In this document: positions 8,930 through 64,000 of the stretch, piece by piece | How positions within the stretch are numbered: the stretch's first letter is position 1 | How the letters are laid out: each line of letters opens with the position of its first letter | From: Dehalococcoidia bacterium | Lineage (GTDB): Bacteria > Chloroflexota > Dehalococcoidia > SZUA-161 > SpSt-899 | DNA length: 64,000 bases | Assembly (NCBI GenBank): GCA_046484125.1 | Contig: JAWOBX010000043.1 | Span: 3,047-67,046 of the forward strand | Direction of reading: 5' to 3' | Notes under the pieces: model-generated | Database searches by the model: none | Seen by the model: the letters and a program-made list of their open reading frames with translations, nothing else | Told to the model about the DNA's origin: nothing | Made by a program: the position numbers and the translations under genes

Positions 8930-9601
8930 TTGGCAAGAGCGCTGAAAGTAACCAGTGACATATACATGGTTGGGGATTCCAGCCTATCGCACCCCTACGA
9001 TTGCTCGGTTTATCTGGTTGATGCCGGCGAACTGGTGTTGATCGATTGTGGAGCGGGATTGAGCTATACCACTTTGATCGACAATATAAAAAGTACCGGG
9101 CGGGATATCCGAATGCTTAAAGCTATTCTGGTGACGCATGCCCACATTGACCACATAGGAGCCCTGAAAAGATTCAAGGATGAATTTGGAGTAGATATCA
9201 TAGCGCATCAGCTTGACGCGCAAGCCATCGAGACGGGAAGGGGTGTGGGAGCCGAAATGTACGGGGTTGATTATGAGCCGTGTCAGGTAAATACCAAAAT
9301 AGAGGGTGAAGAGCAAATCATCGCCGCCGGTGAGAAGGAAATAAGAGTATTGCATATTCCCGGACATACTCAGGGAAGTATTGCCGCGTACATTGATTCA
9401 CCTGAGGAAAGAATATTGTTCGGGCAGGATATTCACGGTCCGTACATTCCACAGTGGGGAGCCGATATCGAAAAGGCCCGCGAGTCACTCCAGAAGCTGA
9501 TAGACCTGAAAGCGGATACACTTTGCGAGGGACATTTCGGTATATACAGGCCGGCGAAATCGGTGGAAGAATATATTCGAGGGTATCTCAACAGCATATA
9601 G
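8930..9601 (+). CDS. MBL-fold metallo-hydrolase
   Basis: It carries the HxHxDH motif (THAHIDHIG) and downstream His/Asp ligands. Confidence 0.7.
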   Translation: MARALKVTSDIYMVGDSSLSHPYDCSVYLVDAGELVLIDCGAGLSYTTLIDNIKSTGRDIRMLKAILVTHAHIDHIGALKRFKDEFGVDIIAHQLDAQAIETGRGVGAEMYGVDYEPCQVNTKIEGEEQIIAAGEKEIRVLHIPGHTQGSIAAYIDSPEERILFGQDIHGPYIPQWGADIEKARESLQKLIDLKADTLCEGHFGIYRPAKSVEEYIRGYLNSI

Positions 9602-10470: not shown

Positions 10471-10698
10471 AACAGGATAGGGATTGCCGCTGATGATTAA
10501 TCACCCCCAGTTGGTCTATATCTTGACTGACGGAACACCCACTCTGGCCCGCTAAACACATGTTAGGAGATGGGTGCCGAATCAATCCCTGTTTTACCGG
10601 TTGTGTCACCCAGCCTTGAGAAAGCCTTAAGACTTCGGGGGTACCTTAAGAGCCGTGAAGCCATCACTCATTGAAGAGGTTCTTCAGGGGTCATGAAA

Positions 10699-12334: not shown

Positions 12335-12483
12335 TTTTACATACTCCTTCCTGAATTAATAATTTCCGCTGGTTTCCCTCAATGAAATTTTCAATCGAGT
12401 TACAGCCTTCGTTAAACCCCCAAACCTGTGGGGTCTTTGAAACAGGGAACCCCCCACCTCCCCGCCCCGGATTTTTCAAAGAT

Positions 12484-13284
12484 TCACTGAGTCGACTGGA
12501 TTTTTTCTTTAACACGTTCCATTATCCTGATCATCGTATCACCAGCGCCCTCGTGAATACAAACCTGAGCCTGCCGGTCAAGATCAGTGCTGTCCCGGTT
12601 TATTATAACAAGACTGGCACCCGACTGCACAGCATAGCGCGGAATAAGGGCCGCGGGGTAGACGACTAACGACGAACCTATCACTATACAAAGGTCGCAC
12701 TCTCGAGCCCGGCGTTCCGCCTCACTCAACACCTTTTCAGGTAGTGCTTCACCGAAGAAAACGGCGTCAGGCTTCAGAAGGGCTCCACATTTATCACATT
12801 CCGGTACCTCTACGCCGCGGCTCATCAATCCCCTGATTTCATCCATGGGATATGTTTCACGGCATTCGATGCATATGGCTCGTTCCAGAGTGCCGTGGAG
12901 ATGAAAAACCAGGTCAGGAGTATTACCGGCCTCTTCATGCAGGCCGTCAACGTTTTGAGTAACCACGCACCCCAGCTTGCCCATTTTCTCCAGTTCAGCC
13001 CCGGCATAATGGGCAGCGTTCGGAGAGACGCCAGTATGCGGGATGAAGTCATCCTGAAGAAGAGCTTTCCAGTGAACTTTGCGGGCATCTTCGTCATAAA
13101 GAAATCTCTGCAAGGTGAACAAATCGGGATCGTATTTGCTCCAGATACCTCCGGGACTTCTGAAATCAGGTATACCGGATTCAGTGCTGACGCCCGCCCC
13201 TGTAAAGATTACTATCCTGTTTGAGTTGAAAACTAGTTCGGCTGCCTTTTCCACCAGAACTTCGAATGGTTCATCGCTCATCAC
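12484..13284 (-). CDS. cobB: NAD-dependent protein deacylase (Sir2 family)
   Basis: GAGVSTESGIPDFRS, GIW, the catalytic H (FHLHG) and a CxxC…CxxC Zn ribbon are present. Confidence 0.8.
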   Translation of the reverse strand: MMSDEPFEVLVEKAAELVFNSNRIVIFTGAGVSTESGIPDFRSPGGIWSKYDPDLFTLQRFLYDEDARKVHWKALLQDDFIPHTGVSPNAAHYAGAELEKMGKLGCVVTQNVDGLHEEAGNTPDLVFHLHGTLERAICIECRETYPMDEIRGLMSRGVEVPECDKCGALLKPDAVFFGEALPEKVLSEAERRARECDLCIVIGSSLVVYPAALIPRYAVQSGASLVIINRDSTDLDRQAQVCIHEGAGDTMIRIMERVKEKIQSTQ

Positions 13285-14015
13285 GTCACCCTCCTCTCGA
13301 CTGCCAGCATTTCAACCAGAAGTGTCTCCATTTCGAGCCCCTGGCTTAGAGTGAGGTCCAGCCCTCTGGTAATAGCGGCTTTGGCGTATTCGACCGCCTT
13401 CTGGTCTCTTAGCATTATCGTCCGGGCGATTGATTCCGCCACTTCAAGCAATTGATCCCTGGGCACAACACGGTTGACAAGTCCGATTCGCAGGGCCTCT
13501 CTGGCGTCGATTCTATCAGCGGTCAGGACGATTTCCGTTACTCTGCCGTGAAGCACAAGTCGAGGCATGGTCTGTGAGCCTCCTGCCGTTGGGACCATCC
13601 CGAGATTAGCCTCAGGCAAACCGAACTGAGAATCATCCGAGGCAACGCGGATATCACAACACATGGCCATTTCAATCCCTGCGCCCAGCGCGAATCCACC
13701 TATGGCGGCGATTATCGGCTTTTGCACACTTAAAAACATCCCCCATAGATCCCGCTCCCACCGCACCTCCCTGGCGATGATCATTGATGGTGTGGTTCCA
13801 AACTCGGATATATCAGCTCCAGCGGAAAAGGCCTTTTCCCCCGCCCCTTTTATAATAGCCACCCTTACTTGCGGGTCGTCTTTAACGGCGGGAAGAAGCT
13901 CATATAGCTCGTCTCGCATCCTTGTACTAACCGCGTTCAAAGCTTTGGGCCGGTTGAGTGTGATCCAGGCTATCCCGTCGTCCTTTTCATATATAATGGT
14001 TTCAAAGCCACTCAT
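13281..14015 (-). CDS. Enoyl-CoA hydratase/isomerase (crotonase fold)
   Basis: It shows crotonase signatures (AAIGGFALGAGIEMAMCCD). Its stop overlaps the cobB start by 4 nt. Confidence 0.8.
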   Translation of the reverse strand: MSGFETIIYEKDDGIAWITLNRPKALNAVSTRMRDELYELLPAVKDDPQVRVAIIKGAGEKAFSAGADISEFGTTPSMIIAREVRWERDLWGMFLSVQKPIIAAIGGFALGAGIEMAMCCDIRVASDDSQFGLPEANLGMVPTAGGSQTMPRLVLHGRVTEIVLTADRIDAREALRIGLVNRVVPRDQLLEVAESIARTIMLRDQKAVEYAKAAITRGLDLTLSQGLEMETLLVEMLAVERRVT

Positions 14016-22393: not shown

Positions 22394-22822
22394 ATGAGGA
22401 AGGGAATGAAGCAACTGAAGCTGCCTCTGGAATGGATAGATTGCCGTTACTATAATGATTGTGATGCGCCTCTGTGCCCTCAGGATATCAATCTGGAACA
22501 GTGTCTCTGGTTCCCGAGAGAGCAGGTTTGCCGGCTGAGGAACGCGCCGGACTGGGTAAAGAAGCAACGGAAAATCTCCAGAATAAAGAATATCGATGAA
22601 GAGGCGTATTTCACAGTTACGATGCTGCAAAAGATAGGCGAGATAACATCTGATATCCGAGGGGCCGATCCTGAGTCAGTTGATGGAGAAAGGGAATGGC
22701 TTTCGAGGTGGCCGCGCAGAAAGCGCAAGAAAAAATCAGACACGCCCGTCGATACAGAAAACGAAGGCGAGCGAAAACAGCCTGGTACGTATCGGATGTT
22801 TGATGATTTAGGGAGCCTCTGA
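22394..22822 (+). CDS. Hypothetical Cys-rich basic small protein (orphan)
   Basis: The start has a GGAAGGGAG RBS. The product has five Cys in the first 50 aa (C…C…C…C…C) and a basic RWPRRKRKKK tract. A hairpin follows immediately downstream. It may not be a real gene. Confidence 0.35.
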   Translation: MRKGMKQLKLPLEWIDCRYYNDCDAPLCPQDINLEQCLWFPREQVCRLRNAPDWVKKQRKISRIKNIDEEAYFTVTMLQKIGEITSDIRGADPESVDGEREWLSRWPRRKRKKKSDTPVDTENEGERKQPGTYRMFDDLGSL

Positions 22823-22835
22823 TAAACTTCGTAAA

Positions 22836-22915
22836 TCCCCCAATCATGGGGGCTTTTAATGCTGTGGGACAACCCCAGCCCCCTGAAGTCACCTCTTACT
22901 GAAAAGGTTCTTTAG
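22836..22915 (-). repeat. GC-hairpin intergenic repeat, copy H (minus orientation)
   Basis: Its reverse complement matches copy D near 59300 (…TTCAGTAAGAGGTGACTTCAGGGGGCTGGGG…GCCCCCATGATTGGGGGATT). Confidence 0.5.
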
Positions 22916-36254: not shown

Positions 36255-36404
36255 TTTTTTAAATTGTCTGCTCAAATTATAAGATATCTGCACTCTATAA
36301 GTACAGTGAAGCATGTCCCAAAAAACAGCGATTGGAACCTTCGTGGGGTTGCCTCCTGTCAATCTCCGTTTCCCGTCTCCGGATGGCCTTACTGTAAAAA
36401 GGTG

Positions 36405-36500
36405 CAGGAGATGACTCCTGCCGGGGGTTTTGGGGGTGGCCCCCAACACAAACTTCCCCCAAGATTGGGGGATCAAAGGGGGTTGATTTGAGGTTTTTTG
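36405..36500 (+). repeat. GC-hairpin intergenic repeat, copy E
   Basis: …GATGACTCCTGCCGGGGGTTTTGGGGGTGGCCCCCAACACAAACTTCCCCCAAGATTGGGGGATCAAAGGGGGTTGATTTGAGG… has the same two-hairpin architecture as copies A, B and D. Confidence 0.45.
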
Positions 36501-36568
36501 CAGGAACACCAGTTACTATTGGCAGTGTTAATTGACCATAACTGATCCGGATTGCTATAATTCCAGCG

Positions 36569-38823: not shown

Positions 38824-38847
38824 AAGTCATAAGGAATCTTTTGAGGC

Positions 38848-38945
38848 AGGTGGTGACTCCGGGGGTCTGGGGGTGCCTCCAGATTCAAATTCCCCTGTGT
38901 TTGGGTAATTAAAAGGGGTTGATCGGGGTTACCATAAGCAAAATA
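38848..38945 (+). repeat. GC-hairpin intergenic repeat, copy A
   Basis: GGTGGTGACTCCGGGGGTCTGGGGGTGCCTCCAGATTCAAATTCCCCTGTGTTTGGGTAATTAAAAGGGGTTGATCGGGG… lies about 110 nt upstream of fur. Confidence 0.5.
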
Positions 38946-41937: not shown

Positions 41938-42013
41938 GGCTCCATCGTCTAGGGGACTAGGACATCGGCCTTTCAAGCCGAAAACAGGGATTCGAATTCC
42001 CTTGGAGCCACCA
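41938..42013 (+). tRNA. tRNA-Glu (anticodon UUC), CCA encoded
   Basis: A manual cloverleaf gives acceptor GGCTCCA/TGGAGCC, anticodon stem TCGGC/GCCGA with loop CTTTCAA, and T-arm AGGGA-TTCGAAT-TCCCT. The 3' end is ACCA. It is near-identical in layout to E. coli tRNA-Glu. Confidence 0.9.
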
Positions 42014-43957: not shown

Positions 43958-44725
43958 ATGGCAGAAGGAGTAATCTACGAGAAAACTGATAGAATCGTAA
44001 CCATAACCTTTAATGATCCCAGGGGCTTTCACTCGATGAGTCCGGAATTGTTCAAAGCCTTCAGCGATGCGTTGATTCAGTTCAGGGACGATGACGACGC
44101 GCTGGTCGCGATCGTTACCGGAAACGGGAAAAAGGCCTTTTGCGCCGGAGCCGATGTAAAGAGTATGATACCAGCCCTGAGGGATAAAGACTACGTGCTG
44201 CCGCCTCTGATAACACGGGGACTTAACATCATGAAACCCGTAATAGCCGCGATCAATGGGCTGGCGCTGGGAGGCGGACTTGAGATCTGTATGGCCTGTG
44301 ATATACGAATCGCCTCTGATAACGCGAGGTTCGGACAGCCGGAGGTCAACCTGGGACTGATGGCGGGGTGGGGAGGGACACAGAGACTGGCCCGGCTTGT
44401 GGGCCCGGGACTCGCATCGGAATTACTCTTCACGGGAGAGCCGATAGATGCGAAGGAGGCGTTACGGATTGGACTGGTGAATAAAGTGGTTGCGCAGGAT
44501 GACTTAATGGCCACTGCCAGGGAGATGGCGGAAAAGATATGCACGAAAGCTCCCCTTGGTATACGGGCTACTAAAGAGGCCATCTATCGCGGACTGAATA
44601 TGGACCTTGAAGACGGGCTATATATGGAAAAGGCCCTGTTCGACTATATCCTGACAACCGAAGATTCATATGAGGGCATAAGCGCTTTTCTGGAGAAACG
44701 TCAGGCCGATTTCAAAAAGAGATAA
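43958..44725 (+). CDS. Enoyl-CoA hydratase (crotonase)
   Basis: Crotonase motifs are present (AINGLALGGGLEICMACD). The start was set at MAEGVIYE, which has an AAGGGG RBS. Confidence 0.8.
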   Translation: MAEGVIYEKTDRIVTITFNDPRGFHSMSPELFKAFSDALIQFRDDDDALVAIVTGNGKKAFCAGADVKSMIPALRDKDYVLPPLITRGLNIMKPVIAAINGLALGGGLEICMACDIRIASDNARFGQPEVNLGLMAGWGGTQRLARLVGPGLASELLFTGEPIDAKEALRIGLVNKVVAQDDLMATAREMAEKICTKAPLGIRATKEAIYRGLNMDLEDGLYMEKALFDYILTTEDSYEGISAFLEKRQADFKKR

Positions 44726-46920: not shown

Positions 46921-46939
46921 CCGGCTTAAACAACCTCCG

Positions 46940-47030
46940 ATAAAGTGGTGACCTCTGGGGTCCGCGGCTTTCCTCCCGGATTTACAATCCCCCTTGGGAT
47001 TTGGTGGGAATAATAAGGGTTGGTCAGCTT
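46940..47030 (+). repeat. GC-hairpin intergenic repeat, degenerate copy F
   Basis: AAGTGGTGACCTCTGGGGTCC… shares the 5' core of the family. Confidence 0.35.
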
Positions 47031-47299
47031 TCCTTATTTTGTGACCAAACTCAATGCCGTCCAAATCTGAACCCTTAAACTTCGAGCGGTCCCGGTAGAT
47101 CTTTCTCATGGCGTCGAAGTGGAGCTGGTTGATTAAAAGCCCGGTTTTCCGCTGACTCTCATAGTTGTCAGCTTGTAATCCGCTTGTGTTCTCCTGCGCC
47201 TGAGGAAAGAATAGCGTTATGACAGTGACTGCTGTTAAACTTTACTTTAACATTAAAGAGTGACATTTTGGCAGTCGAACAGCATAATCTAAGGAGACT

Positions 47300-47508
47300 C
47301 TTTTAGTAAGTGGCGACTTCGGGGATCTGGTGGTGTCCGCCAGCTTCAGATTTCCCCCGGGACCGGGGGATTAAAAGGGGTTGATCAGAGGCTCATTAAG
47401 GAATCTCTCAATAAGAGATGACTTCGGGGGTCTGGGGGTGTTCCCCAGCTTCATAAGTCCCCGGGACCGGGGACTTAAAAGAGGTTGATCAGAGGCTCAT
47501 TAAGCAAA
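47300..47508 (+). repeat. Tandem pair of GC-hairpin intergenic repeats (copies B1 and B2) abutting the ispG start codon
   Basis: Two units of about 95 nt are present: AGTAAGTGGCGACTTCGGGGATCTGG…CCCCCGGGACCGGGGGATTAAAAGGGGTTGATCAGAGGCTCATTAAGG and GACTTCGGGGGTCTGGGGGTGTTCCCCAGCTTCATAAGTCCCCGGGACCGGGGACTTAAAAGAGGTTGATCAGAGGCTCATTAAGCAAA-ATG. Confidence 0.6.
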
Positions 47509-48558
47509 ATGATCAAGAGGCGAATATCGCGACCCATAAATGTCGGTGGGGTAAAGGTCGGGGGGGGAGCCCGCGTGGTGATCCAGTCAATGACGAAGAC
47601 TGATACTCGCGACGTTTCCGCCACTCTTAATCAGATTAACCGGCTGGCGGAGTGCGGGTGCGGAATAGTACGTCTTGCCGTTCCCGATATGGACGCCGCC
47701 GACTCACTTGGAAGGATTAAGAAATCTTCACCAATACCATTGATAGCTGATATACATTTCGATCATAGACTGGCGGTTGCTTCCATAAATAGTGGCGTTG
47801 ATCAAGTCAGGTTCAATCCGGGCAATATCAGGGGAGACGAAAAAATCGCTGAGATCGTCAGGTGTGCCAGCGAAAGATCTCTGCCACTTAGAATAGGCGT
47901 AAATGCCGGAAGTCTGGCGCACAAGCGGGATGAGGCGGAGCTCGCCACCTTGATGGCCGAAGCGGCATTGGACCAGGTGCGGCTGCTGGAAGATATGAAC
48001 TATGATTTGATCGAAATATCCCTGAAGGCATCGGATGTGATGACCACAATCGAGGCGAACAAGCTGATCGCATTGAAAACGCCGTATCCGTTGCATATTG
48101 GAATTACCGAGGCCGGGTTGCCGGGTCCCGGCAGCATACGCAGCGCGGTGGGACTGGGGGTTTTGCTCTATGAGGGACTGGGTGACAGCTTGAGAGTTTC
48201 ACTCACTACGCCGGATCCGTGTGAAGAGGTGCTGGCTGGCCTGGATATCCTTCATTCACTGGAACTGATGGACAGTACTCCCAGACTCATAAGCTGCCCC
48301 ACATGCGGGCGTTGTGAGGCGGAAGGATTCTTCGAACTGGCAGGAGCGATCGAAAAGGAATTGAGGAAGCTGGAGAAACCGGTAACGGTGGCGGTGATGG
48401 GTTGTGTGGTCAATGGCCCCGGGGAGGCGCGAGACGCTGATGTTGGTCTGGCCTGCGGCAGGGGGAGAGGTGTGATCTTTAAAAAGGGTGAAAAGGTCGC
48501 TACTGTTGAAGAAACCGAGTTCTTTAGCGCCCTGATGAAGGAAATAAGTGTGTTGTAG
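47509..48558 (+). CDS. ispG: 4-hydroxy-3-methylbut-2-en-1-yl diphosphate synthase (flavodoxin)
   Basis: The TIM-barrel region and the C-terminal CPTCGRC [4Fe-4S] motif are conserved. The ATG sits at the end of repeat B2. Confidence 0.85.
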   Translation: MIKRRISRPINVGGVKVGGGARVVIQSMTKTDTRDVSATLNQINRLAECGCGIVRLAVPDMDAADSLGRIKKSSPIPLIADIHFDHRLAVASINSGVDQVRFNPGNIRGDEKIAEIVRCASERSLPLRIGVNAGSLAHKRDEAELATLMAEAALDQVRLLEDMNYDLIEISLKASDVMTTIEANKLIALKTPYPLHIGITEAGLPGPGSIRSAVGLGVLLYEGLGDSLRVSLTTPDPCEEVLAGLDILHSLELMDSTPRLISCPTCGRCEAEGFFELAGAIEKELRKLEKPVTVAVMGCVVNGPGEARDADVGLACGRGRGVIFKKGEKVATVEETEFFSALMKEISVL

Positions 48559-48644
48559 CGGATCATATGGTCCGGAAATCGTCATCATCGAAAATTGCTT
48601 GTGAGGACTGATGATCAAACCTTAGGTAAGCTGAAAATCAAGCA

Positions 48645-48700
48645 ACCTTTCAGAGTAAGTGGTGACTCCGGGGGATCCGGTCGGTCAGAGGTTTCAGACG
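48645..48700 (+). repeat. GC-hairpin intergenic repeat, truncated copy C
   Basis: CCTTTCAGAGTAAGTGGTGACTCCGGGGGATCCGG… has the 5' core only. Confidence 0.35.
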
Positions 48701-48727
48701 ATTTCCATGTAATTAGAGGGAAAGGAA

Positions 48728-49639
48728 TTGACTCACATATCAATATCCACAATGTGGAGTGAGAGATTTACGAACATCGCTGAGTTCATACAGGATGCCA
48801 GGGGCACGGGTTTTACGCATCTGGAACTTAACAGCATATTATCACCAGAACGTCTAAAAGAACTCCTTTCGGTCAATGATCTCGGGATATCCAGTGTCCA
48901 CGCTCCATCGCCCAATACGGAAACAGCCGCGGGAATGGCCAACCGTCTTTCTCTGGGATCGCTGAATGAAAATGAGAGACGGGCGGCCATAGAGGTTACC
49001 GTATCCACGATCAACCTCGCTTCAGAGGTGGGCGCCCGGGTAGTTGTTGTACATGCGGGGTACGCCGATATGAATCCGGATATGGAAAAAGATCTGCGAA
49101 GAATGTATTTGGACGGTCTGGGGGAGAGCGACGAGTTTGAAAGATTGCGATGCAGTATAGTTGAGTTACGGTCGTTTAACGCCTGTCCGCACGTTGACGC
49201 GGCAAAAGAGAGCCTCAGGGAGCTCGCCGATTACGCTAGGAAAAAAGGGATTCAGATTGCCCTTGAGAATAGAGTCAACTATCACGAGATTCCCAGCATA
49301 GACGAGATGGTAGACATAATGAGTGAGTTTCAGCCGGAGGTGGTAGGGTACTGGCATGATGTTGGTCACGCAGAGATTCAGTCCCGAACAGGTTTCACTC
49401 CTCATATGGACTGGTTTAAAGCACTTGAGGATCGAATGGTGGGTGTTCACTTACACGATCTCCGGGGGCTGAAGGATCATTATGCCCCGGGGTCTGGAGA
49501 CATCAACTGGCGGTTGCTGGCTGACAAGCTGGCCGGGAACATAGTCCGGGTTTGTGAAATAGCAGCATGGAATGAGCCTGAGGATGCCGGCGGGGCCATA
49601 AGCTTCCTGAAGGAGACGGGGGTACTCAGTCATTCTTGA
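48728..49639 (+). CDS. Sugar-phosphate isomerase/epimerase (xylose-isomerase-like TIM barrel)
   Basis: The AP_endonuc_2/XylA-like fold (…HAPS…, …VVHAGY…, …LENR…, …HD…) is recognisable. It starts with TTG and a GAGGGAAAGGA RBS. Confidence 0.6.
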   Translation: MTHISISTMWSERFTNIAEFIQDARGTGFTHLELNSILSPERLKELLSVNDLGISSVHAPSPNTETAAGMANRLSLGSLNENERRAAIEVTVSTINLASEVGARVVVVHAGYADMNPDMEKDLRRMYLDGLGESDEFERLRCSIVELRSFNACPHVDAAKESLRELADYARKKGIQIALENRVNYHEIPSIDEMVDIMSEFQPEVVGYWHDVGHAEIQSRTGFTPHMDWFKALEDRMVGVHLHDLRGLKDHYAPGSGDINWRLLADKLAGNIVRVCEIAAWNEPEDAGGAISFLKETGVLSHS

Positions 49640-49735
49640 AAACCAGCCGAATATCATGTGCACTAATACCGGGGCTGGAAGATGCCCGCTGATTGATTGA
49701 TCACAGAATGATATTGAGCATGGTCCGGAGAAAAA

Positions 49736-50692
49736 ATGCGCGCCGTTGTTTTTGACAGAGAATTACGTTTCGTCCGTGATTATCCGGTCCCCTCGCGTGA
49801 ACCCGGATGGGCCATGATTCGGGTCAGTCTGGCAGGTATCTGCAAGACTGATATAGAGATCACCAAAGGATATATGGGGTTTTCCGGGGTCGTGGGGCAT
49901 GAATTCGTGGGTATTGTCGATGAAGCCGAGGATCCCGTTTTGGTCGGTAAGAGGGTGGTCGGGGAGATAAACGCGGCTTGCGGTAAATGTCAAATATGTG
50001 ATATAGGATTGGGACGGCACTGCCCTCACCGGTCTACTTTGGGGATCGACAAGCTCGATGGTTGTATGGCGGATTACTGTGTATTACCGGTGAGCAATCT
50101 GGTAAGGGTTCCCGATGGAATTTCCGACGAAAGGGCTGTCTTTATTGAGCCACTCTCCGCCGCGTGTGAAATACTTCAGCAGCTAAGGCCGGAGCTCTGG
50201 GAACGCGCGGTGGTGCTGGGGGATGGGAGGCTGGGGATACTGTGTTCCTGGGTACTTTGTACCGTACTTTCCGACGTAACTCTGGCAGGCCATCATCCAG
50301 AGAAGCTTGGTATCGCGCAATGGCGAGGATTGAAGACGACGAGAGATGCCGGCAAATCGGTAACGAACGCCGACATCGTCGTGGAGGCGACCGGCTCACC
50401 GGATGGATTAAGGGAGGCTATGGAGATCTGCGGGCCCAGGGGCAGGATAGTACTAAAGTCAACGATCGCGGCACACACTGATTTGAACCTTTCGCCGCTG
50501 GTGATAAACGAGCAGACTTTGATAGGGTCGCGTTGTGGTCGGTTTCAAGACGGACTTCGAATCCTGGAATCTTATCCGGATATGCCAATCGAAAGAATGA
50601 TCACAGGTCGGTACTCGATCGAAGAGTCATTAGCCGCGTTCGACCGGGCGGTAAAACCGGATGCGCTTAAAATACTGATAAAGGTAGACTGA
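49736..50692 (+). CDS. Zinc-dependent alcohol dehydrogenase (MDR family)
   Basis: The catalytic Zn site GICKTDIEI…GHEFVG and the structural Zn site CGKCQIC…C are present. Confidence 0.8.
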   Translation: MRAVVFDRELRFVRDYPVPSREPGWAMIRVSLAGICKTDIEITKGYMGFSGVVGHEFVGIVDEAEDPVLVGKRVVGEINAACGKCQICDIGLGRHCPHRSTLGIDKLDGCMADYCVLPVSNLVRVPDGISDERAVFIEPLSAACEILQQLRPELWERAVVLGDGRLGILCSWVLCTVLSDVTLAGHHPEKLGIAQWRGLKTTRDAGKSVTNADIVVEATGSPDGLREAMEICGPRGRIVLKSTIAAHTDLNLSPLVINEQTLIGSRCGRFQDGLRILESYPDMPIERMITGRYSIEESLAAFDRAVKPDALKILIKVD

Positions 50693-50738
50693 TTAAACAA
50701 CCCGGGTCTACTATAAACGAAGGCTGGTACTCGATACT

Positions 50739-51782
50739 ATGAAGATAAAACCGATAGAATGGCAAGATGGAAAGATTATACTTTTAGATCAGACCCGCCT
50801 ACCGAGGGAGGAAGTATTCCTTGAAATACCGGGTGTCGATGGAATTTGTGAGGCAATCAAGGCGCTCCGGATTCGAGGCGCTCCGGCTATTGGTGTCGCC
50901 GCGGCTTATGGGTTGGTGCTGGGCGCGCGGGAAATCATGGAAGAATCGAGAGAAGACTTCCTGTCGCAGTTAAAGAGGATATCCGACACCATTTTGGAGA
51001 CACGCCCTACAGCGGTGAACATATTCTGGGCGCTGGAGAGAATGAAGCGGACCGCCAGCGGCTTCTCAGATACTGAGGAGATTAAATCTGCTCTGGAGGG
51101 AGAAGCCCGCGCCATTGAGAGAGAGACGGCTGAGGATGACCGCAGGTTGAGTGAATACGGGGCCGAACTGATACATGACGGTTCCACCATACTCACTCAT
51201 TGCAATGCCGGATCCCTTGCCACATCCGGTTATGGTACAGCACTGGGCATGATCGGCGCGGCTTTCGAGCGGGGCAAACGAATCCAGGTGTTTGCCGATG
51301 AGACGAGACCGTTACTGCAGGGAGCTAGACTTACTACCTGGGAGTTGATGAGGGCTGGAATACCGGTGACTCTCATCACCGATAATATGGCGGGCCATTT
51401 CATGAAGCAGGGGAAAATAGACTGTGTAGTAGTGGGAGCCGACAGGATCGCAGCTAACGGGGATGTAGCGAACAAGATCGGCACATACAGCGTAGCGGTA
51501 CTGGCTCACGAGCACGAAATCCCGTTTTACGTCTGTGCCCCTGTTAGCACAATAGATTTTTCGATCCAATCCGGTAGCGAAATCCCTATAGAGGAGAGAG
51601 ACGCGCGTGAAGTCACTGAGATACTTGGAGTCCGTATAGCCCCTGAGGGTGTACATGTATTGAATCCGGCATTCGATATCACGCCTCACAGCTATGTTTC
51701 TGCTATAATTACGGAAGAGGGTGTGGCCAGAGCGCCTTATCTGGACAGTCTGGGGAAAATGCGTAAAGGAGAGAGGTATTGA
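50739..51782 (+). CDS. mtnA: S-methyl-5-thioribose-1-phosphate isomerase (eIF-2B family)
   Basis: …[17 protein letters not shown]…[12 protein letters not shown]…[18 protein letters not shown]…. Confidence 0.8.
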
Positions 51783-52645
51783 CTAAGGGAGCAAAGATCG
51801 GAGTGATAGGGGGAACCGGCCTGTATGAGATAGAGGGGATGGTGGGCCTGGAGGAGGTTAAGGTTCATACTCCTTTTGGTGACCCCAGTGACGTGATCGG
51901 CATTGGAAGCCTCGAAGGGGTCAACATCGCGTTTCTGCCAAGACATGGAAAGGGGCATCGTATAGCTCCGAATGAGTTACCGCAAAGGGCCAACATCTGG
52001 GCGCTGAAATCCCTTGGCGTGGAATGGATCATAGCCGTCAACTCCGCTGGAAGCTTTAAACAGGAGGTCAGGCCGCGGGAACTGGTTATTCCCGACCAGG
52101 TCATAGATCGAACCAGGGGAAGAATAAATACGTTTTTTGGTAACGGTGTGGTTGCTCACCTGACATACGCCAAGCCCTTCTGCCCGGTGCTCAGCGGGAT
52201 ACTCTTTCAGGCCGCACAGGAAGCGGGAGCCAGAGTGCACAAGGGCGGTACGTTTGTTGCTATGGAGGGACCGCAGTTTTCCACTGTGGCGGAATCACGA
52301 CTGTATAAGTCGTGGGGGGCCGATATTATAGGTATGACGGTCCTCCCTGAGGCGAAGCTGGCACGCGAGGCTGAAATATGTTATGCCACGGTGGCGTGTG
52401 TTACCGATTATGATTCCTGGCATGATGATCTGGGAGAGGTGAGGATAGAGGAGATTATAGAGATACTCTCTCAGAACGTGGACAGGGCCAAACAGATAAT
52501 CAGGATAGCTGCCATGAATGTCCCTGAGATCCGAGAATGTAATTGTATCAACGCGCTTGAAAACGCTATTGTTACCGATCCGGCGGCGATACCGGACGAG
52601 GTCAGACGTGACCTGGACATTATTATCGGGAAATATATCAAGTGA
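51779..52645 (+). CDS. mtnP: S-methyl-5'-thioadenosine phosphorylase
   Basis: It has the MTAP/PNP-I fold (IGVIGGTGL…FGDPS…LPRHGKGH…). A 4-nt overlap with mtnA indicates translational coupling. Confidence 0.85.
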
Positions 52646-52655
52646 GGCGGCCAAA

Positions 52656-53705
52656 TTGAATAATAATGATTTCAAACTAAACCTCGCGGGTCTGGCTACG
52701 GCTATCGGCAGCATGCCCCATACCGATCCGGCTAAAGCGTGTGAAGTGGTAAGAGAATATCTACCCGACATCCCGGTATGGCCGCAACTGCCCAACAGGT
52801 CGTTTCTGGAGAATATGTATGTTCAGTACAGCGAAGGTCTGCCTGGCATCGTACTGAGTGAAGAAAGAATTCATATCGACCGCACCGTAGACCTCTCGGA
52901 TCAGATGGAAGCGCTGTACGCGGCTTATATAGAGAATGATCTGGACCGATATGCCGTTTCCAGAGAATATGCTCTGGGCCTGCATGAATTCTTAAATATG
53001 AAGCTGGATTCGGCGAGGGCGGTTAAGGGTCAGGTGACCGGCCCTGTCAGCTTTGGCCTGACGGTTACCGATCAGGATCGCCGTCCCACACTGTATGATG
53101 AGACGCTGGCGGACGCAATAGCCTTTCATCTCCGCCTGAAAGCGGCGTGGATGGAAAGGGAGCTGGCTAAGTTATCGCCGAATACAATCGTTTTTCTCGA
53201 TGAGCCGTATCTGGCGTCTCTGGGTTCCGCCTTCGTAGCAATCGACAATGAAATTGTCATCAGGCTCACCAACGAAGCGTTGGGTGGTATACGGGGCCTG
53301 AAGGGGATGCATTGTTGCGGCAACACCGACTGGTCTGTTCTGATGGCAACCGAAATAGATATACTCAATTTCGACGCGTATACTCATGGTGAGGCACTGG
53401 TGCTCTATCCCTCCGCAGTGCGGGAATTTCTTGATCGTGGTGGCATACTGGCATGGGGTATAGTTCCCAGTGACGAAACAGAGGTGGCCGGGGTTACTGC
53501 AAGTGGCCTGATAGACAGGTTGTCGGAATTGATGGATTACCTGACTGGAAAGGGTGTCGACCGTGAGGCGCTCGCGAAGCAGTGCCTGATAACTCCGTCA
53601 TGTGGTGCTGGTTCTCTTTCGGAGGGGGCCGCAGAGTCGGTGTTGAAGCTGACTGAGGAGGTCTCCTCTCAATTCAGAAATTCAAAAAGACTTGGTGGCG
53701 GATAA
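52656..53705 (+). CDS. MetE-like (cobalamin-independent methionine synthase C-terminal / UroD-like fold) protein
   Basis: FLDEPYL resembles the MetE IQIDEP motif and MHCCGNTD resembles the Zn-ligand HMCY motif. The start was set at TTG (TGAGG RBS) just after the mtnP stop, because the track ORF start would overlap mtnP by 128 nt. Confidence 0.5.
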   Translation: MNNNDFKLNLAGLATAIGSMPHTDPAKACEVVREYLPDIPVWPQLPNRSFLENMYVQYSEGLPGIVLSEERIHIDRTVDLSDQMEALYAAYIENDLDRYAVSREYALGLHEFLNMKLDSARAVKGQVTGPVSFGLTVTDQDRRPTLYDETLADAIAFHLRLKAAWMERELAKLSPNTIVFLDEPYLASLGSAFVAIDNEIVIRLTNEALGGIRGLKGMHCCGNTDWSVLMATEIDILNFDAYTHGEALVLYPSAVREFLDRGGILAWGIVPSDETEVAGVTASGLIDRLSELMDYLTGKGVDREALAKQCLITPSCGAGSLSEGAAESVLKLTEEVSSQFRNSKRLGGG

Positions 53706-53706
53706 A

Positions 53707-55347
53707 ATGGACCTTGATATCATCGGAATAGGCTCGGCTTTAGTAGACATAACTATTGAAGTTGATGATAAATTCCTGGATGCTGAGGGATTACCCAAGG
53801 GCGGGATGACTCTGGTTGAAGCGGATCGGTCAAAGGAATTACAGCAAAAGCTTAAAGGTATGACCAGAGAGATCTCGCCGGGCGGGGCTACAGCCAATGT
53901 CATGGCCTCGTTTGCCCATTGTGGGGGAAGGGCGGGATTTATTGGCAAGGTTGGCCGCGATGAGATGGGAGCGTATTTCGAGCAGGAGACGGAGGCGGTC
54001 GGGGTGAAGTTTGTGAAGCTGGTATCGGAAAGCTCGCCTACAGGTATCGGCCTGACACTGATAACTCCCGATAGGCAGCGGACGTTTGCCACCAATCTCG
54101 GGGCGGCCGTAGAGCTTTCACCGGCTGACCTTTCAGAAGAACTTCTAAATCAGGCGCACATTCTGCACCTGGAGGCGTACCTGGTTTTTAACCGGGAGCT
54201 TATGGATTTCATTCTGAGTACGGCCAGGGCAAATGGCCAGAGGATCTCTATGGACCTATCCTCATTTGATACGGTGAAAGAAAATCTGGAATACCTGGAG
54301 AGGATAGTAAAAGATCATCTCGATATAGTTTTTGCCAACGAGGATGAGAGCCTCGCCTTTACAGGGCTCGCGACGAGGGAATCACTTGGTGTCCTTTCCC
54401 GCCTGTGTGAGATCGCTGTTGTCAAGGAGGGGGCTCTGGGTTCCCATATAGCCAATGGTGCGCATCGTGTTTTTCTACCCGCGGAAAAGGCATGGGTTGT
54501 AGATACCAACGGGGCTGGAGACGCCTATGCGGGAGCGGTTTTATATGGGTTGAGTCAGGGTATGAGCGTATCAACCTGTGGGCGTATTGGTACCAGAGCG
54601 GGTGGGCTGATTGTTGGCCAGAGAGGAGCAAGGTCGACGCCTGATAACGCCAGGTTCCTGCGTGACTTTGCTGAAGAACTGGGTATGCTGATGTTGAGAC
54701 GGCTTCAGTCGGGAAGCCTCACACCAGAGCTAGTGGTGGGGGTGGGGGAGGAAATCGCCTCTTTTCATGAGAAGGCGGCTGTATGTGAGGAACCGGACAA
54801 ATATGGTAGCCCCGAATGGGTCGGAGCGGCTGTGGCGGAGGTTTTCAGCGAGTTAGAAGATTATGTGGGAAAAACCATTGAAGAGGAGCAGTACAGCGCG
54901 TTGAGGAGCTACATGGAGGGGTTCCTGGAAGATAAAGACCGTCTAATGGAGAGCCGGGTTGAGCAGGGGAGAATAATCTCCTGCCACGGTGAATTGCATA
55001 CCGAACATATCTGTCTGGGAGATTCGGTTACCATCCTTGACTGCCTGGAGTTCGACGATCGATTCAGCTACAGTGATCCGGCTTACGATCTGGGTTTACT
55101 GACAATGGAACTCGGTTTCCATGGCCGTTCGGACTTGGAAGAGGTGCTGGAAAGGTCGTATGTAGAGAGTTCGGACGATAGACAGATTATAGAGATGTTG
55201 CCGTTCTATAAAATATATCATGCTCTGGTCAGGGGCAAATATACCAGTTTCCGCCTTGAAGATGAGGATATATCGAAGGAAGAGAGGGAGACTGTTATTG
55301 ATACTTCAAGGCACTATTTCGAACTGGCTTGTTCTTATCTGCCCTGA
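53707..55347 (+). CDS. PfkB-family sugar/nucleoside kinase fused to a C-terminal aminoglycoside-phosphotransferase-like (MtnK-like) kinase lobe
   Basis: The N-terminal 330 aa is a ribokinase fold (…DTNGAGDAYAGAVLYG…). The C-terminal roughly 220 aa carries a Brenner-like HGELHTEHI and ILDCLEFDD…SDPAYDLG, matching APH/choline-kinase catalytic and activation segments. Confidence 0.6.
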   Translation: MDLDIIGIGSALVDITIEVDDKFLDAEGLPKGGMTLVEADRSKELQQKLKGMTREISPGGATANVMASFAHCGGRAGFIGKVGRDEMGAYFEQETEAVGVKFVKLVSESSPTGIGLTLITPDRQRTFATNLGAAVELSPADLSEELLNQAHILHLEAYLVFNRELMDFILSTARANGQRISMDLSSFDTVKENLEYLERIVKDHLDIVFANEDESLAFTGLATRESLGVLSRLCEIAVVKEGALGSHIANGAHRVFLPAEKAWVVDTNGAGDAYAGAVLYGLSQGMSVSTCGRIGTRAGGLIVGQRGARSTPDNARFLRDFAEELGMLMLRRLQSGSLTPELVVGVGEEIASFHEKAAVCEEPDKYGSPEWVGAAVAEVFSELEDYVGKTIEEEQYSALRSYMEGFLEDKDRLMESRVEQGRIISCHGELHTEHICLGDSVTILDCLEFDDRFSYSDPAYDLGLLTMELGFHGRSDLEEVLERSYVESSDDRQIIEMLPFYKIYHALVRGKYTSFRLEDEDISKEERETVIDTSRHYFELACSYLP

Positions 55348-55434
55348 GCAGGCATGTTGAACAGGCCTCATGTTTTGTTGCGCCATGAAAACGGTAGGAG
55401 ATTCAGGCCGCTTAAGATCACAAGGGGGAAGTCA

Positions 55435-56139
55435 GTGAAAAGGTTGATTTTAATTATTGCTGTTTGTATAGCCCTGGTGCTGGCGTTGCCGGGTTGCGGC
55501 GACGACGATGACTCGGACGGTTCGGGGTTTGAAATAGCGGCTTCCGGGGCAGTAGCACTCATCGATTCACATATCAGTAGTGTGATTAGCGACATGGAAG
55601 TGGTCGCAATGACAAGCGAGATCAAATCGGGCGACTGGGAGCGCATGGAGCCGCTGCTTGCCGAATTGAAGCAGGACGAAATTCCGGCTGTGTTGTGGTT
55701 TGTGCTACCGGACGGTTCATACTTTACTGTAGAAAAAGGTAAGGTGGACGAGAACCTCTCGGACCGATCATATTTTCCCGGCCTGATGGATGGCAGGAAC
55801 CAGATAAGCGGGCTTTTGACTAGTAAATCGACGGGTAAGAAGATGTTTGTTGCTGCCGTTCCGGTATGGTCCGATGGGGAGGTTATCGGGGGGTTGGGTG
55901 CCTCTGTTCTCTTGGACGGTTTGAGCGGGGTCTTGACCAGTGAGCTGCAACTGCCGTCCGACATGTTTTTCTATGTAACAGACGAAAGCGGTAAGGTGGC
56001 CCTGCATTCAAATACGGCTTTGATTATGGAAGAAAGTTCTGATATAGAAAATGGCCGTGTTGTGGCCACAAAAAAATCAGAGCTGATGGGCTGGAATTTC
56101 GCGCTGGCTTATATGACGGAAGACGCCAGCCTGGATTGA
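55435..56139 (+). CDS. Lipoprotein with a Cache/PDC-like periplasmic sensor fold
   Basis: A GTG start with an AAGGGGGAAG RBS is followed by a signal peptide and lipobox LPGCG, then a mixed alpha/beta region. Confidence 0.45.
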   Translation: MKRLILIIAVCIALVLALPGCGDDDDSDGSGFEIAASGAVALIDSHISSVISDMEVVAMTSEIKSGDWERMEPLLAELKQDEIPAVLWFVLPDGSYFTVEKGKVDENLSDRSYFPGLMDGRNQISGLLTSKSTGKKMFVAAVPVWSDGEVIGGLGASVLLDGLSGVLTSELQLPSDMFFYVTDESGKVALHSNTALIMEESSDIENGRVVATKKSELMGWNFALAYMTEDASLD

Positions 56140-56240
56140 AGTAAAACTCTGGTTGTTTCGGGTATCGGAGTGAGTATTTCCTGAATTGGGCACTTGAGAG
56201 TGCCTGTAGTTGTAACCCTTTTCACCCGGTTTTGTCAGGT

Positions 56241-57104
56241 ATGAGGATTGATCTACACATACACACGGGAACCGGATCGGATGGAAACCTCTCGGTGGAA
56301 GAGGTTCTGGCCGAGGCAGCTCGTAGAGGTATTGATTTACTGTCAGTAACCGATCATGATTCCATTGATTGCCAGGAAACGGCTTCGCGGCTGGCAGAAG
56401 AATACGGTATAGTATACATAACCGGCGTCGAATTAAATGTCTCCTTCGAGTATCCGGGAAGAAAGCTGGTCTCGCTGGATTTCCTGGGTTACAATTTCGA
56501 TCATGACAACCAGGAATTGAAAGAGAAGCTCGAGGAGATACGCCGGCATCGCCAGTCAAGGGCTCTCAGGATTATGGAGAACTTGAATGCCGAATTTAAC
56601 TCTGAATGGCTTGAAGAGTTAACCGGAGAGGATATGGAAGCGATTCAGGCCAGCGTGGATGGTTCATTCGGCCGGCCGCATATCGCCGATTACCTTATCA
56701 CCAGAGGCATCGTACAGAATAGACAGGAGGCTTTCGATAAGTATCTGGTCAAGTGCGATGTGCCCAAATATCCGCTCAGGCTGTCCGAGGCTTCAAGGTT
56801 GATCAGGGGTGCTGGTGGGGTGATCGTGCTTGCCCATCCCAATGATCCCGGCGGGACTTCGCTTGTGAACATAACGTCCCGCCTGGAAGAACAGGGAAAA
56901 ATAATCGAGGAATATATGCTGGAATATATAGACGGTGTAGAATGCTGGCATCCCCGTCATGATGGAAAAACTGTTGAATACTATGTGGATTTTTGCAAAA
57001 GACATAAGCTCCTGATGACGGGTGGCAGCGATTGTCATCAGAAACCGATCATTATGGGAACTATGCCTGTACCGGATTATGTCGCCGAGATTTTACCGGT
57101 ATGA
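56241..57104 (+). CDS. PHP-domain metal-dependent phosphoesterase
   Basis: MRIDLHIHTGTGSDG…SVTDHD is present. Confidence 0.75.
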   Translation: MRIDLHIHTGTGSDGNLSVEEVLAEAARRGIDLLSVTDHDSIDCQETASRLAEEYGIVYITGVELNVSFEYPGRKLVSLDFLGYNFDHDNQELKEKLEEIRRHRQSRALRIMENLNAEFNSEWLEELTGEDMEAIQASVDGSFGRPHIADYLITRGIVQNRQEAFDKYLVKCDVPKYPLRLSEASRLIRGAGGVIVLAHPNDPGGTSLVNITSRLEEQGKIIEEYMLEYIDGVECWHPRHDGKTVEYYVDFCKRHKLLMTGGSDCHQKPIIMGTMPVPDYVAEILPV

Positions 57105-59272: not shown

Positions 59273-59299
59273 CTCAGAGGGCCTGCAAAAAGGTGGGTT

Positions 59300-59400
59300 A
59301 AGTAACCTCTTCAGTAAGAGGTTACTTTGGGGGATGTCCCCCAGCTTTAAAGGTCCCCATGATTGGGGGACTTAGGGAGTTGATCAGAGGTTCCTTAAGA
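59300..59400 (+). repeat. GC-hairpin intergenic repeat, copy D
   Basis: GTAACCTCTTCAGTAAGAGGTTAC (a 10-bp hairpin) is followed by TTTGGGGGATGTCCCCCAGCTTTAAAGGTCCCCATGATTGGGGGACTTAGGGAGTTGATCAGAGGTTCCTTAAG. It lies upstream of gatC. Confidence 0.5.
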
Positions 59401-63532: not shown

Positions 63533-64000
63533 CTGTCAAAAGCTACTAAGGGCACGTGGAGGATGCCTTGGTGCCAAGAGCCGATGAAGGGCGTGGCTAG
63601 GCTGCGATAAGCCTCGGTTAGCTGCCAAGTAAGCCAAGCCGGGGATTCCCGAATGAGGTAACTCATCCGCCCGAAAGGCGGATACTCCTGGCTGAACACA
63701 TAGGCCAGGCAGGGGGAACCGGGGGAACTGAAACATCTTAGTACCCCGAGGAAAAGAGATTATTCCCTGAGTAGCGGCGAGCGAAAGGGGAGAAGCCCAA
63801 ACCCTGATGACCAAACGGTCCTGGAACCTGAGTCATCGGGGGGTTGTAAGACACGGCAAGCTCCGACCAGGTAGGAGCAGGGAGTTACAAACCGTAACCC
63901 TAGTTGAAGGACTCTGGAATGAGCCACCATAGAGGGTGAAAGTCCCGTAGGCGAAAGGGGGAGGCTCCCGGGCCGTGTTCTTGAGTACCACGGGGCACGG
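63533..64000 (+). rRNA. rrl: 23S ribosomal RNA, 5' portion (continues beyond the window)
   Basis: It shows conserved 23S 5'-domain strings (GGATGCCTTGG, GATGAAGGGCGTGG, CTGCGATAAGCC, GGGGGAACCGGGGGAACTGAAACATCTTAGTACCCCGAGGAAAAGA, GAGTAGCGGCGAGCGAAAGGGGA). Confidence 0.9.

Follow-up and report, generated by a model that had tools for sequence, protein, structure and literature searches.

IS5 of Escherichia coli is an autonomous element of 1195 bp. Its target duplication, measured in E. coli mutation-accumulation lines, is the tetranucleotide YTAR, which is two-fold enriched in non-coding DNA (PMC5009759). Non-autonomous transposons (MITEs) with ends of the IS5 family are known from Porphyromonas gingivalis, in which BrickBuilt, MITE239, MITE700 and MITEPgRS were described, and from Neisseria meningitidis, in which the element ATR has ISNme1 as its parent. 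The elements of this group are short, non-coding, multi-copy and intergenic, their IS5-family inverted repeats enclose cores unrelated to a transposase gene, and nesting or clustering occurs in some of them (PMC4596501). The Correia or NEMIS elements of Neisseria are MITEs of 100-155 bp which contain hairpins, often lie just 5’ of genes, are co-transcribed and can supply promoters or processing sites; for MITEs near genes, effects by promoters, IHF sites and RNA processing have been reviewed (PMC10969869).

A family of GC-rich repeats was analyzed in 64,000 nt of a Dehalococcoidia genome (contig JAWOBX010000043.1, positions 3,047 to 67,046), referred to as the window. The unit is about 100 nt long (93-105 nt between the target duplications) and consists of GGAACCTCTGAATAAG, two GC hairpins and GTTGATCAGAGGTTCC. 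It is very probably a MITE of the IS5 family (IS5 group). With the BrickBuilt/ATR group it shares all of the properties given above, whereas its ends (GGAACCTCTGA… as opposed to GAGACC…), its core and its host (Dehalococcoidia instead of Bacteroidota and Neisseria) differ, and its YTAR duplication of 4 nt is clean, while BrickBuilt duplications are often unclear. Compared with E. coli IS5, the left end GGAACCTCTGAATAAG agrees with the IS5 end GGAAGGTGCGAATAAG in 12 of its 16 nucleotides, the YTAR duplication is the same and transposases of full-length elements with the MITE ends are 44% identical to InsH, but the window element is only about 100 nt long and non-coding, with an unrelated hairpin core. 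Size, hairpins and the position 5’ of genes recall the Correia elements; those have ends of 26 bp and a TA duplication, and no parent IS5 element is known for them. Of the two, it is Correia for which functions as promoter, IHF site and RNase III site have been shown experimentally. REP/BIME repeats are likewise GC-rich intergenic hairpins present in many copies; REPs, however, are single palindromes of 20-40 nt without terminal inverted repeats or target duplications and are mobilised by RAYT, whereas the window element possesses both inverted ends and a target duplication.

Seven copies in the window are full-length and one has an internal deletion, to which one or two decayed relics can be added; the copy count according to the covariance model is 8-10. 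An HMM trained solely on copies from other genomes and then run on the window recovered seven copies with E-values from 5e-21 to 2e-9. The window was also scanned with the covariance model with filters off, which added the copy at 48638-48699 (E 1.3e-5) absent from the training set. The core motif GGTGACTTCGGGGG (≤ 2 mismatches) was matched seven times in the window compared to 0.54 expected matches, and the tail GTTGATCAGAGGTTCC (≤ 3 mismatches) six times compared to 0.58. Repeat finding tied the tandem pair upstream of ispG to the copies near 36.4, 38.9, 48.6 and 59.3 kb and to the one at about 22.8 kb, which is reversed. The repeat family is confirmed as real, with a copy number far above chance, and all eight copies listed in the preliminary description were present near the places given there. 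That description had the core of the element right and missed the ends; the element begins some 20 nt 5’ of the start it gives.

Copy 1 of the tandem pair spans 47289-47399 on the plus strand (covariance model 100 bits; HMM E 2.7e-18, match 47290-47399) and comprises a left CTAA at 47289-47292, the element at 47293-47395 and a right TTAA at 47396-47399, which it has in common with copy 2. The latter (47396-47503, plus strand; HMM E 6e-20, match 47397-47503, also found by the covariance model) continues with the element at 47400-47499 and ends with a further TTAA at 47500-47503. Upstream of this pair, a decayed copy at 46926-47038 (plus strand; HMM E 2e-9, match 46927-47027; covariance model 58 bits) lies 6 nt past the stop codon of a thiolase gene and is flanked by TTAA and TTAT. 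The only full copy on the minus strand, 22808-22915, has CTAA on both sides, lies downstream of the gene for the gamma subunit of acetyl-CoA synthase and was detected by HMM (E 5e-21), covariance model and motif matches. On the plus strand, the copy at 36394-36501 has a degraded left end (HMM E 2e-13 for model positions 20-102, match 36408-36495; covariance model 69 bits) and is followed 68 nt downstream by the start of an amidohydrolase gene. The copy at 38829-38937 (plus strand; HMM E 1.8e-12, match 38830-38936; covariance model), flanked by ATAA on both sides, begins 6 nt past the dtd stop codon and has fur 113 nt downstream. Hairpin 1 is shortened in the copy at 59298-59398 (plus strand; HMM E 1e-18, match 59299-59398, right end with 0 mismatches; covariance model), which is flanked by TTAA on both sides and precedes gatC by 87 nt.

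The copy at 48638-48699 (plus strand; also supported by motif matches) is an internally deleted relic, in which both ends are present (GCAACCTTTCAGAGTAAGTGGTGACTCCGGGGG … GTCGGTCAGAGGTTTC) and the hairpins are gone. The relic proper covers about 48642-48694; the adjoining sequence as far as 48745 is native to the intergenic region and is conserved in relatives. A degenerate trace suspected earlier at 10590-10690 was found as a strongly decayed relic at 10578-10687 between convergent genes (covariance model E 0.01, HMM E 0.004, and by-eye reading), yet on the minus strand. One more relic at 12388-12498, also on the minus strand, is doubtful (covariance model E 0.09, HMM E 0.003). Mismatches in the ends and one internal deletion mark the window copies as old and in part decayed. 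No ORF of ≥ 80 AA is wholly contained in any copy, and the listed ORFs overlapping a copy run past its ends.

The terminal inverted repeats are 11-16 nt long, with the left end GGAACCTCTGA and the right end TCAGAGGTTCC. In an alignment of 23 copies from four genomes these two sequences delimit the element, the 11 end pairs are 85% complementary and the outer 4 nt co-vary between left and right. The flanks of the 23 copies are mostly CTAA/CTAA, with five cases of TTAA/TTAA, one of ATAA/ATAA (window positions 38829 and 38934) and one of CAAA/CAAA; in the window, the target duplications are CTAA, ATAA and, twice, TTAA. Taking the listed loci of other genomes and the window together, the 4-nt flanks were identical in 40 of 75 end pairs, compared to 14.4 by permutation (maximum 27 in 10,000 permutations). 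In these 75 pairs, the combination CTAA/CTAA occurred 14 times and TTAG/TTAG 10 times, whereas CTAA/TTAG did not occur. The flanks are therefore direct and not inverted repeats, i.e. duplications which are not part of the terminal inverted repeat. The four common flanks TTAA, CTAA, TTAG and CTAG correspond to YTAR. Exceptions are one intact copy with unlike flanks (CTAA/TTAA) and the ATAA duplication, which departs from YTAR.

Hairpin 1 (CUGGGGG…CCCCCAG) and hairpin 2 (UCCCCCA…UGGGGGA) are 86-96% paired across the copies, with about 95% of the alignment cells paired. The covariation check proposed in the preliminary description did reveal compensated changes in these hairpins, but few: alignment positions 46-67 changed from CG to UA in one subfamily, 83-92 from AU to GC in the tandem pair, 77-98 from UA to GC once, and 54-63 also once. 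Most of them are single inherited events within subfamilies and thus no evidence for a dedicated RNA function. The conservation of the hairpins nevertheless exceeds what might be expected of neutral stuffer and hints at some structural constraint beyond a plain MITE model. Foldability of the core could matter, as weakly indicated by this pairing, either for transposition or, in transcribed elements, for tolerance or stabilisation. Two further structures were considered and discarded. The local 5’ hairpin formed by the left end with AAGAGG is confined to the window copies and is not a family trait, as 16 of 21 copies lack pair 12-24. The closing stem GGTGACTTC/GGGGTTGATC proposed by RNAalifold is 96% paired; however, no pair has changed on both sides, hence the stem is uninformative.

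For the distribution of the ends, the tail GTTGATCAGAGGYTCNYTAA was scanned against 185,579 species-representative genomes, which resulted in at least 112 loci; the number of chance matches was estimated at about 17. Among the matches listed, many are situated at the ends of contigs, and it is common for one genome to have several. A BLAST comparison of the window with the 112 loci listed gave no long match, which places its own genome outside this set. When the matches are aligned, the tail proves to be an arm of a terminal inverted repeat: the listed matches read YTAA followed by GGAACCTCTGA(A/T)(T/C)AA… on the left and …GTTGATCAGAGGTTCC followed by YTAA on the right, and the interior depends on the lineage (Thiotrichaceae, Hyphomicrobium, Marinospirillum, Thermomonas and others). 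The element of the window itself, including its GC hairpins, was present in at least 11 loci from at least three other Dehalococcoidia/Chloroflexi MAGs, which among the matches listed are PPR_0295, SI047_bin16 and binchicken_co334_59; PPR_0295 has at least 17 copies within six loci of 8 kb. The neighbouring genes in these three genomes are unrelated to those of the window and encode VTC, Usp, a class-V aminotransferase, a PAS histidine kinase, TPR, NrpR and TetR proteins.

Many of the listed matches belong to lineage-specific MITEs of 56-400 nt, which have the same IS5-type ends and YTAR duplications around unrelated cores (L002, L013, L040, L075, L018, L017, L068, L103 and others); Limnobacter, Synechococcus and a Peribacteria MAG are also among the hosts. 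The location of many of them at contig ends suggests that such MITEs break assemblies. Abutting copies with one common TTAA, as in the window at 47396-47399, were also seen in a Thiotrichaceae MAG (L013, 2001-2184; L046; L107), which suggests that new insertions can take place at the target that an older copy has duplicated.

The same ends and flanks are carried by about a dozen elements of 1.04-1.25 kb among the loci listed. Transposase-coding elements with the MITE ends and YTAR duplications measure 1132-1254 bp and come from other phyla; among the listed loci, three full-length elements contain intact transposase ORFs of 313-326 AA. The transposases associated with these ends in L050, L004, L043, L112 and L036 match NCBIfam NF033581 (‘IS5 family transposase’, cut-off 140) with up to 337 bits, the highest values being 337 bits for L050 and 324 bits for L043. 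The L004 transposase is 91% identical to that of L050; for the latter, full-length identity with E. coli InsH amounts to 44%. L112, although frameshifted, contains the Pfam domains DUF772 and DDE_Tnp_1. Frameshifted transposase genes were noticed in several long-read MAGs (L036, 3878-5012; L112, 1399-2541; L047; L053); the frameshifts in full-length IS5 copies could indicate pseudogenes or sequencing errors in homopolymers.

No IS5 transposase was detected in the 64 kb of the window, and no intact one in the sampled Dehalococcoidia loci. The latter contain one C-terminal remnant of an IS5 transposase, on an SI047_bin16 contig (L074) about 1.1 kb downstream of a MITE copy. This remnant terminates with TCAGAGCTTCC followed by CTAA (also read as TTGATCAGAGCTTCC followed by CTAA) and has the same C-to-G end variant as the left ends of the SI047_bin16 MITEs, GGAAGCTCTGA. 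ORFs beside the MITE clusters in L003 and L077 were considered as transposases and rejected, one being rhomboid-like and the others without a match.

The terminal inverted repeats, the YTAR duplication and the ends of the IS5 family support and specify the MITE part of what had been described as a dispersed REP/MITE-like element. The window repeats are ordinary selfish DNA rather than a dedicated regulatory RNA, and represent a fresh family of a known element type. Since inverted ends and YTAR duplications are common to these repeats and to IS5 elements, they account for the dispersal. We infer that an IS5-family DDE transposase acting in trans binds the ends of the element and inserts it at a YTAR tetranucleotide, which would be duplicated in the process. 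Intergenic copies would persist because selection purges insertions in genes and YTAR is commoner between genes, and a new insertion that reuses the TTAA or CTAA beside an older copy would produce a tandem pair. Effects on neighbouring genes would be by-products of insertion, and any regulatory effect on ispG is probably incidental.

The neighbourhood of ispG deserves a separate account. The gene is located at 47509-48558 on the plus strand (NF001540, 417 bits), and its proximal 5’ region consists of MITE sequence. As had been noted before, the second copy of the tandem pair abuts ispG: the element ends at 47499, i.e. 9 nt 5’ of the ATG at 47509, with TTAA at 47500-47503 in between, and a GAGG is found at -17 to -14, 13 nt before the ATG. 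In the protein collection searched, apart from an identical entry of a Dehalococcoidia MAG, the nearest IspG is 74% identical. In relatives from three lineages (70-74% IspG identity), ispG is the last gene of the operon rpsB-tsf-pyrH-frr-acd-uppS-cdsA-dxr-rseP-ispG, with an rseP-ispG spacer of 21-63 nt. The ispG loci of these relatives (L113, L115, L116 and L117) contain no MITE copy over stretches of up to 17 kb, and the element is absent from their rseP-ispG and ispG-isomerase spacers; at 70-74% identity, none of these is a strain-level relative, and the collections searched contain no such relative. The window retains the downstream gene order, i.e. ispG, a sugar-phosphate isomerase-like gene, ADH, IF-2B-like, PNP … PHP (47509-57086), and none of the operon genes located upstream of ispG in the relatives is present in its 64 kb. 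Their place is taken by the thiolase gene and 590 nt in which three MITE copies and the remnant of a truncated ORF are found. The point at which the conserved gene order is interrupted coincides exactly with the MITE cluster (46926-47508), which therefore marks a rearrangement breakpoint. The ORF remnant, at 47040-47240 on the minus strand (…LTAVTVITLFFPQAQENTSGLQADNYESQRKTGLLINQLHFDAMRKIYRDRSKFKGSDLDGIEFGHK), lies between MITE copies and has no Pfam match; its signal-peptide-like part (47199-47225) resembles 9401-9427.

A promoter-like site, GTGACA-17 nt-CATAAT, was identified at 47260-47288 on the plus strand by consensus match only (10 of 12 consensus positions, 0.3 expected by chance). It abuts the left CTAA of the tandem pair. 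Without the two insertions, the -10 box would sit 9 nt from the ispG ATG; as it is, the two copies fill the approximately 215 nt between the promoter-like site and the start of ispG, so that the leader of ispG and its GAGG would derive from the element. For this leader of about 215 nt, a fold of -98 kcal/mol is predicted (z -3.4). At 47485-47516, a pairing is predicted between UUGAUC in the right end and GAUCAA within codons 1-3 of ispG, which would enclose GAGG and AUG in a small stem-loop.

In the preliminary description, the repeats were alternatively regarded as a cis-regulatory RNA or protein-binding module. A structured RNA of this kind (leader, riboswitch or protein-binding 5’ UTR module) upstream of selected genes would fit the orientation of the window copies, seven of eight of which share the direction of the downstream gene, with one abutting the ispG ATG, as well as the nearly complete pairing of the two hairpins with some compensated changes, and the low folding energy of the ispG leader. 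However, no relevant Rfam family reached the gathering threshold, and matches over the cluster with E-values up to 10 were noise only. The downstream genes are functionally diverse, as had been pointed out already, and unrelated to each other both in the window and in the three other genomes. The rule that seven of eight copies lie in the same orientation within 0-200 nt upstream of a gene stands for the orientation in the window, but the copy at 46926-47038 is 471 nt away from ispG, and the orientation was not reproduced in the other three genomes, where, on crude gene maps, about six copies are co-directional with both neighbours and about five are opposed. The window copies, which are co-directional with their neighbouring genes, are equally near to the upstream stop codon (6-80 nt) and to the start of the downstream gene, and the orientation bias in the window is best read as a small-sample effect. 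Moreover, the relic at 10578-10687 sits between convergent genes, ispG of the relatives does without the element, most compensated changes were inherited as single events inside subfamilies, and inverted ends with YTAR duplications, as found in IS5 elements, already explain the dispersal. No terminator-like site was found in the cluster upstream of ispG in a search for intrinsic terminators. We thus consider a cis-regulatory function of the family very improbable. Even less probable is a palindromic repeat of the REP/BIME type, spread by the IS200/IS605-like tyrosine transposase RAYT: the element is indeed short, GC-rich, hairpin-forming, intergenic and at times tandem, but inverted ends of 11-16 nt and direct duplications of 4 nt are present, the ends are identical with those of DDE-type IS5 elements, and no RAYT was observed. 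The repeat is IS-associated, with mixed orientation in other genomes, an outcome which the preliminary description had named beforehand as refuting its proposal.

The MITE identity leaves room for a later use of single copies. The copies at ispG, and perhaps others, might have been retained as domesticated MITEs because they provide the promoter-proximal leader, the Shine-Dalgarno-like GAGG or a structure which stabilises the mRNA or gates translation. This appears unlikely, even though the GAGG 13 nt before the ispG ATG is supplied by the right end, the promoter-like site adjoins the left end of the tandem pair and the ancestral operon setting of ispG has been lost here; in addition, the left-end CCTCT of the window copies can pair with a nearby AGAGG or with the AGAGG of the right end, and the right-end UUGAUC can pair with GAUCAA of the first three ispG codons. 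These points consist of consensus matches and energy predictions only, the local 5’ hairpin is not family-wide, and the proximity to a start codon is adequate in just one of about nine copies. Translation initiation carried or modulated by the element might apply to the ispG copy only.

If such a co-option took place, the insertions would have occurred between the promoter (-10 box CATAAT ending at 47288) and the ATG of an ispG gene severed from the dxr-rseP-ispG operon, and would have converted a near-leaderless ispG into a gene with a structured leader of 215 nt. Access to the GAGG might then be set by the left-end CCUCU, depending on whether its partner is the AGAGG nearby or the distal one, and UUGAUC might pair with GAUCAA over the start codon, which would also set the accessibility of the GAGG. 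A joint reading, in which the MITE pair was co-opted as ispG leader and the GC-hairpin core may be retained in Dehalococcoidia more widely because it stabilises or gates neighbouring mRNAs, is quite unlikely.

Recognition of the repeats as IS5-type MITEs guards against annotating them as a small RNA or riboswitch of a new kind. Assembly breaks and local rearrangements in genomes of Dehalococcoidia, e.g. the broken dxr-rseP-ispG operon, are explained by it as well, and ispG is a handy natural example of leader rewiring by MITE insertion. The ends in combination with the YTAR duplication provide a simple marker for cataloguing lineage-specific MITEs with one IS5-type end in many phyla. A search of the available literature library found no paper on MITEs in Dehalococcoidia, and for the end sequence GGAACCTCTGA it gave unrelated primer matches only; the family is therefore a modest addition to the catalogue of mobile elements and opens no new category of biology.

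Further features of the window comprise a tRNA gene at 41938-42010 and the 5’ end of a 23S rRNA gene at 63536-64000, both according to Rfam. Unrelated to the MITE, an inverted repeat of 33 nt with 85% complementarity connects 13809-13854 with 44126-44158; the site at 13809-13854 is itself palindromic (AAAAGGCCTTTT core).
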